Below are positions 2,983-46,560 of a DNA stretch of 64,000 nucleotides, piece by piece. The stretch is from Candidatus Shapirobacteria bacterium (lineage in GTDB: Bacteria; Patescibacteriota; Microgenomatia; UBA12405): the NCBI GenBank assembly GCA_017991615.1, contig JAGOQF010000003.1, positions 285 to 64,284 on the forward strand. Reading direction: 5' to 3'. The notes under the pieces are model-generated. The model had not been told where the DNA came from. It worked only from the letters and a program-made list of their open reading frames with translations, and searched no databases. A program made the translations under genes and the position numbers. Position 1 is the stretch's first letter. Each line of letters starts with the position of its first letter.

Positions 2983-3720
2983 ATGGCAGATCTAACTCAA
3001 CGACAAATAAAAATTCTCAAGTGTATTACTGAGGAATTTATCGAAACCGCCTCTCCGGTTGGTTCTGAAACCCTGGAAAAAAAGTATTCTTTGGGGATTT
3101 CTTCAGCCACCATTAGAAACGAAATGGCGACTCTAACTCAGATGGGCTTTCTTAAGAAAGGTCATCTTTCCGCCGGTCGTTCACCGACTTCAATGGGTCT
3201 CAAATATTATGTCCGAAATTTGATGACGCCTAAAAATCTTTCCGCCAGTGAAGAAATTGGTGTTAAAGAAAAAGTCTGGGATTATCGCAACGAGTTTGAT
3301 TCACTCCTTCGCGAGACTACCAAAGAATTAGCTAACCGCACCCGATCTATGGCTATCGCCACCACCGATCACGGTATTATTTACAGTCACGGCGCCTCTA
3401 ATTTATTGGAAGAACCCGAATTTTATAACATCGATGTTACCAAAACTGTTTTGTCTTTGTTGGATAATTACAATTTTTGGTTTGACATTATCAACAAAGC
3501 TTCTGCTGTCGCCGACAATGATGATGATTTTGTCCATCTTTTAATCGGTGAAGATTTGGGTATTGAACATCTCGAACCCTGTGGTTTTGTTTACCAGAAA
3601 TATGAAGCTGGTCCCCATCGGGGTGTTGTTGGTGTTGTTGGTCCAGCCCGATTTCATTATACGCACGTTGTTCCTACTGTTGACTACTTTGCCAATCTTA
3701 TCTCCAAAATTACTCGTTAA
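2983..3720 (+). CDS. hrcA: Heat-inducible transcription repressor HrcA (short form, 245 aa).
   Basis: The N-terminal winged helix (QRQIKILKCITEEFIETASPVGSETL, SSATIRNEMATLTQMGFL) is canonical for HrcA. The protein is about 100 aa shorter than typical HrcA. Confidence 0.8.
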   Translation: MADLTQRQIKILKCITEEFIETASPVGSETLEKKYSLGISSATIRNEMATLTQMGFLKKGHLSAGRSPTSMGLKYYVRNLMTPKNLSASEEIGVKEKVWDYRNEFDSLLRETTKELANRTRSMAIATTDHGIIYSHGASNLLEEPEFYNIDVTKTVLSLLDNYNFWFDIINKASAVADNDDDFVHLLIGEDLGIEHLEPCGFVYQKYEAGPHRGVVGVVGPARFHYTHVVPTVDYFANLISKITR

Positions 3721-7357: not shown

Positions 7358-7966
7358 ATGAAATTGGAAACTCTAGTTATCGGCACTCACAATCCCGCTA
7401 AACTTGATTATTATCAAAATTTATTAACCCCTCTTTCCAAAAAAATAGTTGGCCTAAAAGATATTGGAATTGATCAAAAACCTACCGAAACTGGTGATAC
7501 TGCGGAAGAAAATTCTCAAATTAAAGCCAAGTTTTATTCTCAAAGAACAAATTTGCCTGTCTTCTGTGAGGATGAGTCCTTATTTGTTGATTTTCTCCCG
7601 CCATCAGAACAACCCGGAGTTAATGTCAGACGGATTAATCATAATTTAGACGCCACCGATAGTGAATTATTTGATTATTGGGAAAACGTAATTAAAAATG
7701 TTCCCGAAGCTAAACGCACCGGTTATTGGCGGATTGCTTATACCTTAATGTTAAACAATAAACTAAATACTGTTTCTTTTGATCGTCAAATTAAGTTTTT
7801 TTATCCCGCTTCAGATACAAAAATTTCTGGTTGGCCTTTGAATAGCCTTCAAGGTCCGGCCAAGTTCAATAAACCATTTATTGAAATGACTTCAGATGAA
7901 AAAAATCTTATTCAAAAAGAAGAAAATCAATTGATTATCAAAAAACTAATCAGCCTGTTCAAATAA
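7358..7966 (+). CDS. Ham1/RdgB-family non-canonical purine NTP pyrophosphatase (divergent).
   Basis: VIGTHNPAKL corresponds to ATGNxxK. ETGDTAEENSQIKA corresponds to ExGxTFxENAxxKA. CEDESLFV corresponds to DDSGLxV. QPGVNVRR corresponds to the GxPGVYSAR region. Confidence 0.55.
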   Translation: MKLETLVIGTHNPAKLDYYQNLLTPLSKKIVGLKDIGIDQKPTETGDTAEENSQIKAKFYSQRTNLPVFCEDESLFVDFLPPSEQPGVNVRRINHNLDATDSELFDYWENVIKNVPEAKRTGYWRIAYTLMLNNKLNTVSFDRQIKFFYPASDTKISGWPLNSLQGPAKFNKPFIEMTSDEKNLIQKEENQLIIKKLISLFK

Positions 7967-8046: not shown

Positions 8047-8057
8047 TGTGCTATAAT
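8047..8057 (+). promoter_or_regulatory. Extended -10 promoter TGTGCTATAAT for the orphan gene at 8114.
   Basis: TGnTATAAT consensus, 57 nt upstream of the ATG. The same 11-mer core recurs at 8779-8787 and 13901-13911. Confidence 0.45.
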
Positions 8058-8113: not shown

Positions 8114-8662
8114 ATGAATTCAGAGGTAGGTATAAGAGGTGTCGCCATCACTCAGATCCAAAAATCTATTGCCGAAAATGCCGAAAAAGAAAGGAAAAGA
8201 CAAGAAGCAATTCAAAAAAAAGCTGAAGAAGAAGCCAAAGAAGAAGCCAAAGAAAGACAAGTTTATGAGAAAGAACTTCAAAAGCAATTTCCTCACGACC
8301 AAAAACTGTTGGCTGGCTGCTTAAATATTTTGAGATTTATAGCAGCAAGTCTTGAAGAAGATCCAGCCTTTTTCCCTTTAAGGAGGAAAATTATCAACAT
8401 CATCACTGACAACCCTCACAACGAAATCCTAAACCAACAAAATGTTCACTTTTCTGTTTCTCCCACCATAAAACCGCCCTACCGTATCTTTTTCAAGGTT
8501 TCTTGGAGTTCTTACCAATATATTATCCTGTTTGTAATCCGTAATCGTGATGGAAAGGCAAACCTTTACATGAACTTATTTCAACACGAAGGCAACATCG
8601 ACGTCCCTCTTGAGGAAAATGAAGCAGTCACGGAAATCATAAAATTCTTGATGACTGTTTGA
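8114..8662 (+). CDS. Hypothetical protein with an N-terminal KEE-rich coiled coil. The C-terminal half has a beta-strand pattern reminiscent of the RelE/ParE fold.
   Basis: Strong SD (GGAGGGG) 7 nt upstream of the ATG at 8114. It has its own promoter and a downstream hairpin. YRIFFKV...YIILFVIRNRDGKANLY resembles RelE/ParE core strands. This is pattern-level only. Confidence 0.45.
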   Translation: MNSEVGIRGVAITQIQKSIAENAEKERKRQEAIQKKAEEEAKEEAKERQVYEKELQKQFPHDQKLLAGCLNILRFIAASLEEDPAFFPLRRKIINIITDNPHNEILNQQNVHFSVSPTIKPPYRIFFKVSWSSYQYIILFVIRNRDGKANLYMNLFQHEGNIDVPLEENEAVTEIIKFLMTV

Positions 8663-8720
8663 TTTATCTACAGCGCCAAAAAATTTCTAGAACTCAATCC
8701 CTCCCACACTAAACTGCCAC

Positions 8721-8769
8721 AGCGCCTGTAAGGTTTGCAAAAACAACCAAACGGGCGCTTTTTCTTTGC
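8721..8769 (+). terminator. Weak terminator-like inverted repeat AGCGCC...GGCGCT followed by TTTTTCTTT.
   Basis: 6-bp arms at 8721-26 and 8754-59 with a 27-nt loop and a U-rich 3' flank. It lies downstream of the orphan gene. Confidence 0.3.
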
Positions 8770-8778
8770 TCAATTTTC

Positions 8779-8787
8779 TGCTATAAT
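8779..8787 (+). promoter_or_regulatory. Extended -10 promoter TGCTATAAT upstream of nusA.
   Basis: TGnTATAAT, 83 nt upstream of the nusA ATG. Confidence 0.4.
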
Positions 8788-8821
8788 ATTCCACTAATAT
8801 AATTTTTTGCGATTTGAATTT

Positions 8822-8846
8822 GGGGCTGGCAAGGCCCCTTTTTTTG
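8822..8846 (+). terminator. Intrinsic-terminator-like hairpin (GGGGCT-ggcaa-GGCCCC plus T7) in the nusA 5' leader. It lies between the promoter and the RBS.
   Basis: 6-bp GC stem, 5-nt loop, then 7 consecutive T. The RBS AAAAAAGGAG follows 10 nt later, then the ATG at 8870. Confidence 0.55.
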
Positions 8847-8869
8847 TAAATCGCCAAAAAAGGAGATTT

Positions 8870-9859
8870 ATGGATCTAAGAAAACTACCAAAAACTGAAT
8901 TCGCCGCCGCCGTGGCCCAAATTGCCGGCGAACGCAACATCGATGTCCAATCTATTTTGGATTCTATCGAACTTGGACTGATTTCTGCCTACAAACGCGA
9001 CCAAAAAGAACGTGGTCAAGAAGTTTCTGAAGATGATCAATTCGAAGTTGAACTTTCCGCTGACAGTGGTTCTTTCAAAGTTTTTAAACTCGAAGGTAAT
9101 AAAAAAATCGAAGTTACTCCACCCGGATTCGGTCGTATTGCCGCTCAAACCGCCAAGCAGGTTATTGATCAAAAAATTCACGAAATCGAAAAAGAAACCG
9201 TTATTAGTGAATTCCAAAAGAAAGTCGGTCAATTAGTTCCCGGTATTGTTTTGCGATCTGATCCTTACAAGTTAGTCGTCGGCGTTGGTAAAACTGAAGG
9301 TATTTGCCCCAAAGACGAACAAATTCGCGGTGAAGTCATTCAATTGGGTAGTCGTAAATGGTTTTTACTCAAATCGATTGTCAAAGACGAAGAAACCGGC
9401 AAAAGCGAAGTTATCCTTTCCCGCCGCGATCCTGAATTTATCAAACAATTATTTGTTCGCGAAGTTCCCGAAGTCGGCAACAAATCTGTCACTATCGAAA
9501 AAATAGCCAGATCAGCTGGCGAAAGAACCAAAGTAGCTGTTTCCTCCACTCAAGCTGGTGTTGATCCAGTCGGTTCTTGTATTGGTCAAAAAGGTTCTCG
9601 AATTCAAGCCATTCTCAACGAATTGCCACCTTCTGAAAAAGTCGATGTGGTTCCCTTTTCTAAAAATATCAATAATTTTGTAGTTCAGGCTTTATCTCCA
9701 GCCGAGGACATCAAAGTTGTTTCTATTGACCAAAATGTGGCCACTGTCTCTGTTCCTGAAAATCAATTAGCTTTAGCTATCGGTGGTGGCGGTGAAAACG
9801 TCCGTTTGGCCGGTCAGCTAGTTGGATTGGAAATTAAAATAACTCAAAATCAGGAATAA
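8870..9859 (+). CDS. nusA: Transcription termination/antitermination factor NusA (short form without the C-terminal AR domains).
   Basis: Start trimmed to MDLRKLPK, which has a strong SD. NusA N-terminal domain, S1 domain and KH domains (GQKGSRIQAI..., LAIGGGGENVRLA) are present. Confidence 0.85.
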   Translation: MDLRKLPKTEFAAAVAQIAGERNIDVQSILDSIELGLISAYKRDQKERGQEVSEDDQFEVELSADSGSFKVFKLEGNKKIEVTPPGFGRIAAQTAKQVIDQKIHEIEKETVISEFQKKVGQLVPGIVLRSDPYKLVVGVGKTEGICPKDEQIRGEVIQLGSRKWFLLKSIVKDEETGKSEVILSRRDPEFIKQLFVREVPEVGNKSVTIEKIARSAGERTKVAVSSTQAGVDPVGSCIGQKGSRIQAILNELPPSEKVDVVPFSKNINNFVVQALSPAEDIKVVSIDQNVATVSVPENQLALAIGGGGENVRLAGQLVGLEIKITQNQE

Positions 9860-13900: not shown

Positions 13901-13911
13901 TGTGCTATAAT
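13901..13911 (+). promoter_or_regulatory. Extended -10 promoter TGTGCTATAAT upstream of rpsO.
   Basis: Third copy of the same 11-mer core, 77 nt upstream of the rpsO ATG. It is followed by a CTCCC...GGGAG hairpin at 13912-13942. Confidence 0.45.
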
Positions 13912-13987
13912 CTCCCCTAGACTAAATTCGGTTTTTTGGGAGCCATTCCAAAATATTATATTTTTACCGGACTTAGCCGAATAACAT

Positions 13988-14257
13988 ATGGCGTTAACCA
14001 AAGAAGAAAAGCAGGAAATTATTACTAAACACGCTCAAGCCAAGGGTGATACCGGTTCTCCGGAAATTCAAATTGCTATTCTTACCAAAGAAGTCGAAAA
14101 ACTCCAAGGTCATTTAGCTGAAAACAAACACGATTCTCCGGCCAAACGCGGCATTTTAACCAAAATTGCCAAACGTCGCCGTCTGCTTCGTTATCTGTCT
14201 ATTCACAAACCTGATCGATACACTGCTATCACTAAGTCTCTTGGATTGAAGAAATAA
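13988..14257 (+). CDS. rpsO: 30S ribosomal protein S15.
   Basis: KEEKQEIITKH...GDTGSPEIQIAILT...RRRLLRYL is canonical S15. Confidence 0.93.
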   Translation: MALTKEEKQEIITKHAQAKGDTGSPEIQIAILTKEVEKLQGHLAENKHDSPAKRGILTKIAKRRRLLRYLSIHKPDRYTAITKSLGLKK

Positions 14258-44581: not shown

Positions 44582-45064
44582 ATGTCCAGAAAGGGAGCCA
44601 GTAAAATCAGACAAATAGAACCTGATGCTATCTACAACAGCGTTTTGGTTTCCAAAATTATCAACGCTATTATGAAAGATGGCAAGCGCAATGCTGCCGA
44701 AAAACAAATTTATCAAGCATTGGAACTGATTAAAAAAGATTTTCCTAAAGAATCTGAACTTGAAGTTCTGGAAAGAGCCATCGAAAACATCAAACCTAAA
44801 ATTGAAGTTCGTCCTCGTCGAATTGGTGGCGCTGTCTATCAAATTCCAACTCCAGTTCGCGGGCTTCGTCAAAATGCTCTGGCTATCCGTTGGTTAATCA
44901 GTGCTTCCCGCGCTCGCAGTAACAAACAATATCATTCTTTTGCCCAAAAAATTGTCGCCGAGTTAAATGATGCTCTTAGTAACAGCGGTGCTGCTGTCGC
45001 CAAAAGAATGGAAGTCGAACGTATGGCTGAAGCCAACAAAGCCTTTGCTCATTTGCGTTGGTAA
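44582..45064 (+). CDS. rpsG: 30S ribosomal protein S7.
   Basis: PDAIYNSVLVSKIINAIMKDGKR is canonical S7. Confidence 0.95.
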   Translation: MSRKGASKIRQIEPDAIYNSVLVSKIINAIMKDGKRNAAEKQIYQALELIKKDFPKESELEVLERAIENIKPKIEVRPRRIGGAVYQIPTPVRGLRQNALAIRWLISASRARSNKQYHSFAQKIVAELNDALSNSGAAVAKRMEVERMAEANKAFAHLRW

Positions 45065-45077
45065 TTTGATTAAAAAT

Positions 45078-45107
45078 CAAAACTCCCCGATAATGGGGAG
45101 TTTTTTG
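45078..45107 (+). terminator. Rho-independent terminator AAAACTCCCC-gataat-GGGGAGTTTT plus T-tract after rpsG.
   Basis: Perfect 10-bp stem followed by TTTTTTG, 14 nt after the rpsG stop. Confidence 0.7.
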
Positions 45108-45129: not shown

Positions 45130-46560
45130 TTGATTTTATGGTCAGATTTAGTCATACTTAAACAGTATATGTCGTTATTTTCTAAGCCCAAGGTAGTCAT
45201 CTGGCCTAAAAACAAATCTGTTGAGATTTATCTTAGTCGCAAAAATGATAATTTTTTCAGTCTTGATATTAACCTTTGGGAAGATTGCAGTGATAAAGAT
45301 CTCGAAGGTTTGATTTATTTTTTTAATCAGAACAAAATTACTCAGGCTTCAGTTTTAGTTCCCGATGATGTTGTTGTCACCAAATCTTTTGTTTACGACA
45401 CCAAAATTGATACCATCGACAAAAAAGAGGTTATTGGTTTAGCCTCCGGTTTTGTTAACTTTGATATTGATCCTGATTCTATTGAACACTCCCTTATTCA
45501 GGACGGTGAAAAAACCATTATCAATGCCGTTATCTACGACAAATCAAAATTTGATTGTCTCAAATCCAATTTGCTTAAAACTAACTTGGTTATCAATTCT
45601 TACCGTCCTGTTTCTGCCGCCGTCAGCGATGTTGTTTCCAAAATTTATCTTAGTGAATTTTTCCTTATCTATCCCTTAAACGATAAAGATTACACTTTGA
45701 TGTTATCCAAAAATAATCAGGTTTATCTAACCGCCAATTTTAAAGGTCCTAGTCTTGATATTCAAAAAACTATTAATTATGCTCAATTATATTTTTCCAA
45801 TCCAGTCACCAAAATTTATTATCCTGAATCCAAAGATTTGGAGATTATCACTTCCACCGAAATGGAAAAAACTTCTTACAATGAATCTCAAATTGCTCAA
45901 AATTCGAATCATCCCCACAATATTCCTTTACCGGTCATTGGTCAGATTGATGGTATAATCAAACCATCTCAAGATATTAGTTCAAATAAACAACCAAATA
46001 TGAATAACAAGAAAAATCTCATTCCCATTATTGCTGTTATTATCTTTTCTTTTGTCATCGTCTCTTTTGTTGTCTACTTTATTATGAGCAAAAACAAGTC
46101 GAAAGAAATTATCGATGGCAGTCAAATTGATTCTGATATTGTCCCTACCACCATTATTGAAACTGTCACCCCCGAACCGACTCCAACTATCGCGGAGATT
46201 AGTAAAGATATCAAAATCCAAATTTTAAACGCTACCGATATCAACGGTCAGGCTGCTACTCTCAAGGCTAAATTGGTTTCTTTAGGTTTTGAAAATGTCG
46301 CTGTTGGTAATGCCGCTACTTCCGCTACCACCAATACTGTTCAAACCAAATCAGCCACCACTTCAGCTTATTTTGAATCAATTTTAGATCAAGACTTTCC
46401 CGCCGCCTATACTCAAGATCTCAAAACCACCTCTGCTTATGACGCTGTTTTCACTATCGGCACCGATATTTCCGGTATGAAAACCAGTGCTGTCACTATC
46501 ACTCCCACCAAAACCGCCACCCCAACTTCCACTGCCGTCACTCCTACTTTGGTTGAATAA
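45130..46560 (+). CDS. Bitopic membrane protein with a C-terminal LytR_C-like domain.
   Basis: TM segment IPIIAVIIFSFVIVSFVVYFIM. The C-terminus (IQILNATDINGQAATLKAKLVSLGFENVAVGNA) matches the LytR_C pattern. Confidence 0.5.
   Translation: MILWSDLVILKQYMSLFSKPKVVIWPKNKSVEIYLSRKNDNFFSLDINLWEDCSDKDLEGLIYFFNQNKITQASVLVPDDVVVTKSFVYDTKIDTIDKKEVIGLASGFVNFDIDPDSIEHSLIQDGEKTIINAVIYDKSKFDCLKSNLLKTNLVINSYRPVSAAVSDVVSKIYLSEFFLIYPLNDKDYTLMLSKNNQVYLTANFKGPSLDIQKTINYAQLYFSNPVTKIYYPESKDLEIITSTEMEKTSYNESQIAQNSNHPHNIPLPVIGQIDGIIKPSQDISSNKQPNMNNKKNLIPIIAVIIFSFVIVSFVVYFIMSKNKSKEIIDGSQIDSDIVPTTIIETVTPEPTPTIAEISKDIKIQILNATDINGQAATLKAKLVSLGFENVAVGNAATSATTNTVQTKSATTSAYFESILDQDFPAAYTQDLKTTSAYDAVFTIGTDISGMKTSAVTITPTKTATPTSTAVTPTLVE

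Follow-up and report, generated by a model that had tools for sequence, protein, structure and literature searches.

A Conserved Leader Terminator of nusA in Candidatus Shapirobacteria, a Likely Attenuator of the nusA-infB Operon

Introduction

Here we describe an intrinsic terminator located between an extended -10 promoter and the ribosome-binding site of nusA in a 64-kb stretch of DNA (contig JAGOQF010000003.1; hereafter the window, 38% G+C, coordinates on the + strand unless stated) from a Candidatus Shapirobacteria bacterium, a member of the candidate phyla radiation (CPR). It is almost certain that this hairpin is a conserved terminator in the nusA leader, and we put at roughly two in three the probability that it works as a promoter-proximal attenuator of nusA-infB with feedback by NusA, which would make it the Shapirobacteria version of the element termed “rimP-leader.” The class itself is already known, having been predicted across bacteria in 2010 (Naville and Gautheret, 2010) and, according to a later summary (PMC12288461), validated in Bacillus subtilis in 2016 (Mondal et al., 2016). 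What is new is its occurrence in a CPR lineage, on an operon without rimP, together with a conserved extended -10 promoter, an outer helix (P1) and the occasional loss of the element in favor of a short-leader or apparently leaderless nusA.

Anatomy and Conservation of the nusA Leader

The features of the leader are collected in Table 1. An earlier note on this DNA had described the promoter element TGCTATAAT, a hairpin GGGGCT-ggcaa-GGCCCC (P2) followed by T7, and nusA-infB downstream, all of which were confirmed by the sequence, a terminator scan and Pfam; its coordinates were right within one base, those of promoter and hairpin standing as they were and the end of the T-run moving from 8846 to 8845. 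The P2 stem consists of five G-C pairs and one G-U pair with a loop of 5, and was recovered as terminator-like by a consensus terminator scan of the window, although with 6 bp it is short and, compared with the -14 to -18 kcal/mol of other terminators in the window, rather weak. The sequence between T7 and the nusA ATG is gtaaatcgccAAAAAAGGAGattt, 24 nucleotides (nt) in length, and the leader as a whole measures ~76 nt.

Folding of an 86-nt leader segment gave -27.9 kcal/mol (z = -3.2), a value equalled by none of 200 shuffles, where the terminator forms the tip of a single long hairpin and the base of P1 touches the Shine-Dalgarno sequence. The nascent leader up to the loop reaches only -1.7 kcal/mol and holds no competing structure before the terminator is completed; likewise, no alternative conserved pairing or antiterminator was seen across the 75 hairpin-bearing leaders of the comparative set described below. 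A leader peptide was ruled out, since the leader carries neither an ATG nor a Shine-Dalgarno sequence for one, as was a bidirectional terminator, no T-run following the stem on the minus strand. At 8795-8803, 7 nt past the first and within the predicted transcript, there is a second -10-like box, TAATATAAT. This segment is kept as AUAAUAAUUUUG in the clade of the window and as GUUAAUCUGUGG in a more distant clade. It could serve as an alternative start or as a sigma-dependent pause site, or simply represent the conserved 5′ end of the leader.

Table 1. Features of the nusA leader and its surroundings in the window.
Feature	Position	Strand	Basis
Extended -10 promoter element TGCTATAAT	8779-8787	+	Sequence; without good -35; promoter activity predicted
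Predicted transcription start	~8793-8796 (~7 nt after TGCTATAAT)	+	Inferred
P1 5′ strand, outer helix, UUUUUUGCGAUUUG	8803-8816	+	Minimum free energy and centroid structures; covariation counts; cognate-flank pairing
P2 terminator hairpin GGGGCU / GGCAA / GGCCCC, -10.6 kcal/mol	8822-8838	+	Sequence, terminator scan, folding
Terminator U-tract, T7	8839-8845	+	Sequence; T-runs of 5-7 in 67/75 relatives
P1 3′ strand UAAAUCG-C-CAAAAAA, ending at Shine-Dalgarno	8847-8861	+	Folds, covariation
Shine-Dalgarno GGAG (AAGGAG 8860-8865), 4 nt 5′ of ATG	8862-8865	+	Sequence; AAGGAG or AAGGA in most relatives
Leader motif extent by covariance model R2 (closest clade)	8797-8865	+	60.3 bits, E = 5e-8, sole match in 64-kb window
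nusA, 329 amino acids	8870-9859	+	Pfam NusA_N, KH_5, KH_2
infB, short IF2, 470 amino acids	9886-11298	+	Pfam GTP_EFTU, IF-2, EF-G_D2; shares the operon of nusA, from which 26 nt separate it
Terminator-like hairpin AGCGCCTGT...ACGGGCGCT, then TTTTCTTT	8721-8767	+	Fold of 8655-8875; alone -18.2 kcal/mol plus T-rich run

The comparative set came from a one-genome-per-species scan that yielded 80 loci with a NusA 65-94% identical to the query, 79 of them with upstream sequence. Among the loci with informative taxon names, nearly all belong to Candidatus Shapirobacteria or other Patescibacteria, and many loci are generic metagenome bins; a NusA protein search gave close relatives only (at least 72% identity), and the survey covers the leaders of this group. 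A GGG..CCC hairpin with a T-run stands 5′ of nusA in 75 of the 79 loci, and within 60 nt 5′ of the hairpin the exact TGNTATAAT occurs in 62 and TATAAT in 71 of these 75 leaders. The spacing is similarly constrained: from the end of the -10 box to the hairpin it is 25-38 nt (median 30.5), with two exceptions among the 62 leaders that carry the exact box, and from the end of the T-run to the ATG it is 3-35 nt except in six loci with 70-98 nt (median over all relatives 22). Stems of the relatives have 6-7 bp with a median of -11.2 kcal/mol; conservation over the 75 sequences reaches 90-100% in the GGG and CCC cores, which form, together with the T-run, the best-conserved parts of the leader, and a 5′ sequence UUAAU-YUGUGG is conserved as well. 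The earlier note had proposed this terminator between promoter and ribosome-binding site as a candidate autoregulatory attenuator and had suggested checking whether relatives keep the hairpin in front of nusA; the proposal passes this check and draws further support from compensatory stem changes and from the fit to the rimP-leader, both presented below.

As for chance expectation, TGNTATAAT occurs 8 times in the window against ~6.7 expected from base frequencies by our own estimate, which is the level of composition, and five of the eight copies are intergenic, correctly oriented and just upstream of genes. A stricter terminator scan found ~4 clear + strand terminators in the 64 kb, that of the nusA leader being the sole one of the GGGG..CCCC type. 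We regard the conservation, as judged from sequence comparison, as the decisive evidence that the leader is more than a chance arrangement. In eight relatives (L035, L037, L038, L059, L064, L067, L077, and L078) the T-run of the leader ends 3-8 nt before the ATG; there the terminator is kept with no Shine-Dalgarno sequence and no room for P1, and translation would have to begin right beside the terminator hairpin.

Resemblance to Known Leaders

The rimP-leader, called “the most ubiquitous transcription attenuator” (Naville and Gautheret, 2010, Genome Biol 11:R97, PMC2965389), precedes rimP-nusA-infB as a short leader terminator whose 5′ arm is rich in G and whose 3′ arm is rich in C (GGGc..gCCC), with a U-stretch after it. 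It lies 4-130 nt from the start codon and has no antiterminator, no larger conserved element was reported for it, and NusA was proposed as its likely effector (PMC2965389). The Shapirobacteria hairpin takes the equivalent place in the 5′ untranslated region of nusA-infB, between the TGCTATAAT promoter and the nusA ATG, and has GGGGCU/GGCCCC arms with a GGG..CCC core, T7 directly after the stem, no antiterminator or larger upstream structure, and a distance to the ATG within the 4-130 nt range. Its promoter likewise recalls that of Firmicutes, where a -10 box is found ~35 nt 5′ of the hairpin (in Staphylococcus, TATAAT ~35 nt before it; PMC2965389), and some proteobacteria have almost the same flanks (GGAAUGGGC...GCCCAUUUUUU). 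On the level of individual sequences, GGAATGGGCGTTTCGCCCATTTTTT of Azoarcus and GGGATGGGCGTTTCGCCCATTTTTT of Pseudomonas can be set against GGAATGGGGGCGACGCGTCCCCATTTTT of Shapirobacteria, and CTGGGCTTTAGGCCCTTTTTTT of E. coli against TTGGGGCTGGCAAGGCCCCTTTTTTT of the window (PMC2965389). Every defining feature of the rimP-leader that can be checked in silico is thus present. The likeness to other phyla amounts to a short terminator motif at the corresponding place and cannot be shown statistically to be homology. Four differences stand out: the leader sits directly on nusA, with no rimP in between in any of the 79 loci; the core reads GGGG/CCCC instead of GGGc/gCCC; a covarying P1 reaches the Shine-Dalgarno sequence; and the host belongs to a CPR/Patescibacteria lineage that was unsampled in 2010.

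In E. coli, where the operon is repressed by NusA (as cited in PMC2965389), the distal terminator CUGGGCUUUAGGCCCUUUUUUU of metY-rimP-nusA-infB resembles UUGGGGCUGGCAAGGCCCCUUUUUUU of the window, but E. coli additionally has rimP, a tRNA gene and, further upstream in the leader, a tandem terminator (CCCg..cGGG) accompanied by an antiterminator. Compared with the corresponding Rfam family RF01770, the gammaproteobacterial rimP leader, the window has only one terminator in the transcribed leader, its hairpin at 8721-8767 lying 5′ of the promoter; a search with Rfam at gathering threshold over the window returned nothing. A known parallel is found in B. subtilis, in which termination stimulated by NusA in its own leader is summarized as autoregulation (Mondal et al., 2016, in PMC12288461). 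According to that summary, the B. subtilis ylxS/rimP-nusA operon likewise has a terminator in the leader of an operon whose product is a termination enhancer, and NusA dependence is demonstrated there and proposed here; its leader is ~180 nt long (PMC2965389). Autogenous control by leader termination would also be shared with the Firmicutes leaders for L10(L12)4 at rplJL and for L20 at infC; those leaders are long and contain a protein-binding structure competing with an antiterminator, while in Shapirobacteria the terminator lies in a single hairpin only.

Linkage to nusA or to the Upstream Gene

The co-directional upstream neighbor of nusA is dnaJ in 65 loci, and in ~40 of them the dnaJ stop lies 84-125 nt from the nusA ATG and abuts or overlaps the promoter, while in the remaining dnaJ loci 0.2-2.3 kb are inserted between the two genes. 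In the window, this insert is made of a Ham1-family gene (7358-7966) and an orphan gene (8114-8662). Whichever gene lies upstream, the module of promoter and hairpin is always directly on nusA, and the hairpin is therefore not simply the 3′ end of the upstream gene. The earlier note had offered, as an alternative, that the hairpin terminates the orphan gene; this is unlikely as its only role, given that the orphan gene has its own hairpin at 8721-8767 and the module stays with nusA. An ordinary 3′-end terminator would be the first one after a stop with no promoter in between, and in the window both the 8721-8767 hairpin and the conserved promoter intervene.

An unlikely, though the strongest, competitor to attenuation is a constitutive terminator or insulator that mainly ends transcription of the upstream unit (dnaJ or inserted genes) and imposes a fixed, unregulated cut on the nusA promoter without any feedback by NusA. 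In the ~40 relatives where dnaJ abuts the promoter, the leader hairpin is also the first terminator for dnaJ transcripts, and a shared role in which it also stops or attenuates these transcripts is possible; the strong G/C core and the uninterrupted U-tract would suit such a device as well. However, the promoter is conserved 5′ and not 3′ of the hairpin, with constant spacing in over 60 genomes, and the module remains on nusA when the neighboring gene is a different one. In the window, moreover, another terminator comes before the promoter, and the same layout is a recognized attenuator class on this operon in other phyla.

Outer Helix P1 and the Read-Through Transcript

The earlier note contained no mention of the outer helix P1 (8803-8816 with 8847-8861), which was seen in the fold of the leader. 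Alignment of the 75 leaders by MAFFT followed by RNAalifold recovered only three invariant G-C pairs; because this alignment was not structural and hence uninformative, it was replaced by covariance models with hand-set P1 and P2 structures, R1 built from the more distant clade and R2 from the clade of the window. When searched against 563 kb (the window plus the 80 loci, both strands, E up to 1), R1 gave 48 and R2 47 matches, every one of them on the coding strand immediately 5′ of nusA. Paired cells make up 86% of the model alignments, and covariation scores of 0.26 and 0.33 compare with 0.10 and 0.16 in shuffles (reached by 0/500) and are three- to eightfold above each slid control, although these numbers overstate independence, as the alignments are structure-fitted and the sequences related. 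Two-sided changes are found in all five P1 pairs of the clade B alignment and in six of seven of the clade A alignment, and the lower two P2 pairs covary too.

An alignment-free check on 26 nt each side of the terminator agreed: cognate flanks pair at a mean of -6.7 kcal/mol against -4.5 kcal/mol with the flanks of dissimilar leaders, and pair better in 53 of 68 leaders. Single-sequence folds further show that in most relatives P1 is formed by differing sequences, such as GCGAUUU/AAAUCGC, GCAGUGU/AUACUGC, GUAGUGUU/GAUACUAC, UGGUA/UACCA, UGAUA/UAUCA, GGGUA/UACCC, AGUGUAGU/AUUACACU, and GUGAAUA/UAUUCAC. The leader in its entirety forms a single imperfect helix, 17-20 bp long, with 0-4 nt between its end and the Shine-Dalgarno sequence. 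Since P1 forms only after read-through, it cannot set termination, and we infer that its role must lie in the full-length mRNA, be it in stability, in processing, or in how the Shine-Dalgarno sequence is presented. With a lower probability, P1 would add to the attenuator a second, post-transcriptional layer of a kind undescribed for rimP-leaders, the ~20-bp hairpin at the Shine-Dalgarno sequence acting as an RNase III or stability determinant or as a gate for nusA-infB translation.

A more radical proposal would make this the main function, with the P1+P2 hairpin of the read-through RNA being an RNase III site, an mRNA stabilizer or a translation gate and the U-tract being secondary. RNase III cleaves the metY-rimP leader of E. 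coli, which serves here as an analogy only. The covariation of P1 in spite of its need for sequence past the termination point, the better pairing of cognate flanks and the imperfect helix up to the Shine-Dalgarno sequence all speak in its favor, but the eight relatives mentioned above keep the terminator with neither P1 nor a Shine-Dalgarno sequence, and it is the GGG/CCC core and the T-run that are conserved most, so we consider it improbable. Still less credible is that the ~50-nt terminated transcript is a small RNA gene, comparable to the E. coli metY before rimP-nusA, and that nusA depends on leak-through for its expression: the strong conserved promoter, the conserved UUAAU-YUGUGG and the efficient-looking terminator would indeed yield a discrete short RNA, yet no second copy was found in the 563 kb nor any Rfam match, the conserved pairing partner of its 5′ segment lies past the terminator, and the element is lost only along with a promoter shifted up against nusA.

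Proposed Mechanism and Its Weak Points

For the attenuator with NusA feedback, we propose the following course of events. Transcription would start ~7 nt after TGCTATAAT, and polymerase would reach the G/C hairpin and U7 after ~28 nt, where some polymerases would terminate at U7 to leave an RNA of ~52 nt while others would read through into nusA and infB. All nusA-infB transcripts, from the TGCTATAAT promoter or from upstream, would have to pass this terminator. As there is no antiterminator, the read-through fraction should either be constant or depend on a trans-acting factor, and the likeliest such factor would be NusA itself. NusA stimulates hairpin-dependent termination; more NusA would thus lead to more termination and to less nusA mRNA, a negative feedback, and the short, comparatively weak stem would suit a factor-assisted terminator, although the uninterrupted U7 would not. 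In the read-through RNA, the 5′ leader would pair with the segment just 5′ of the Shine-Dalgarno sequence to form P1 and hence the single long hairpin. In the many relatives with dnaJ next to the promoter, the leader hairpin would in addition stop or attenuate dnaJ transcripts.

Several observations weigh against this interpretation. The NusA-dependent intrinsic terminators of B. subtilis tend to have a weak hairpin and/or an interrupted distal U-tract (Mondal et al., 2016; Mandell, 2021). The stem in the window is short but G/C-rich and its U7 is uninterrupted, so that termination here could be largely factor-independent. The hairpin is also absent in four relatives (L026, L029, L076, and L079), in which the promoter is found against nusA instead. 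In two of these, L076 (~2983-3003) and L079 (~2985-3003), 7-9 nt separate the end of a TGnTATAAT box from the nusA ATG, and the nusA mRNA is predicted to be leaderless.

The remaining points against it come from searches with models and sequence patterns. With E values up to 10 allowed, the sole Rfam match was that of RF01770 to 8768-8844, which with 18.2 bits (E = 5) stays below the 47-bit threshold, and it was rejected as evidence given that with the same model an unrelated minus-strand terminator in L023 reached 25.5 bits. Conversely, on the E. coli metY-rimP region the best match of the CPR-derived models, R2 among them, was the true rimP-leader terminator, with an insignificant score of only 8 bits (E ~2). 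A metagenome scan with the pattern GGAATGGGGN{5,12}CCCCWTTTTT was meant to gauge exclusivity to nusA. Among the matches listed, the GGAATGGGG..CCCCWTTTTT string of the distant clade had nusA downstream in 7 of 80, all seven Shapirobacteria-like, and the other 73 were unrelated terminator-like sites from other organisms with no NusA match in the examined DNA of each locus. With so many unrelated metagenome sites, the string alone is not diagnostic and was rejected as a marker of nusA leaders.

Neighboring Genes and Other Observations

A protein identical to the 329-amino-acid NusA of the window is present in public data, and its close homologues from the protein search are named NusA of Candidatus Shapirobacteria. 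Both this protein and IF2 (470 amino acids) are far shorter than those of E. coli, consistent with the reduced genomes of the lineage, and rpsO and a 728-amino-acid open reading frame (ORF) in the position of pnp lie further downstream of infB. An in-frame TTG at 8807 would extend the nusA frame upstream across the terminator (8807-8869) to 350 amino acids, and the start of nusA is the ATG at 8870 rather than this TTG. Several database NusA homologues have 343-347 amino acids and one has 375, which suggests that gene callers sometimes choose such an upstream start and thereby hide the leader. Two minus-strand ORFs (8687-8857 and 8794-8940) that are short and overlap the conserved leader were treated as spurious.

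The hairpin at 8721-8767 lies 3′ of the orphan gene and 5′ of the nusA promoter, and the two closest relatives (L001 and L002), both of them with the orphan gene, retain its GGGCGC and T-run part; judging from its predicted fold, it would end transcription of that gene. The orphan gene itself encodes 182 amino acids with a Lys/Glu-rich N-terminus, is served by a separate TGCTATAAT promoter at 8049-8057 and lacks any Pfam match. Among the relatives it was found only in L001 and L002.

Two further regions of the window deserve mention. The rpsO leader (13901-13990) follows an extended -10 box, TGTGCTATAAT, and contains CUCCCC..GGGAG and UUCGG..CCGAA pairings, with no Shine-Dalgarno sequence preceding the rpsO ATG at 13988. 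Relatives show sub-threshold Rfam matches to S15 leaders 5′ of rpsO (L054 6490-6607, 26.8 bits, E = 0.04), and the region is probably an S15 autoregulatory leader. Between the ORFs 44582-45064 and 45130-46560, the hairpin AAACTCCCCG-ataa-TGGGGAGTTT at 45080-45103 has T-runs on both strands and looks like a bidirectional terminator.

Significance

With the nusA leader described here, the range of the transcription attenuator best conserved in bacteria comes to include Candidatus Shapirobacteria, a CPR lineage with very small genomes, and these uncultured organisms gain one of their few predicted cis-regulatory RNAs. The lineage appears to make use of extended -10 promoters (TGnTATAAT) as well as canonical intrinsic terminators, and the covarying P1 is a small new feature of the class. 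If P1 does act as a second layer, rimP-less CPR bacteria would control NusA and IF2 by a compact two-step element, first through termination and then through processing or translation. The terminator leader has been kept even though rimP was lost from the operon and both NusA and IF2 are short, an argument for a deeply conserved need of feedback on NusA dosage.

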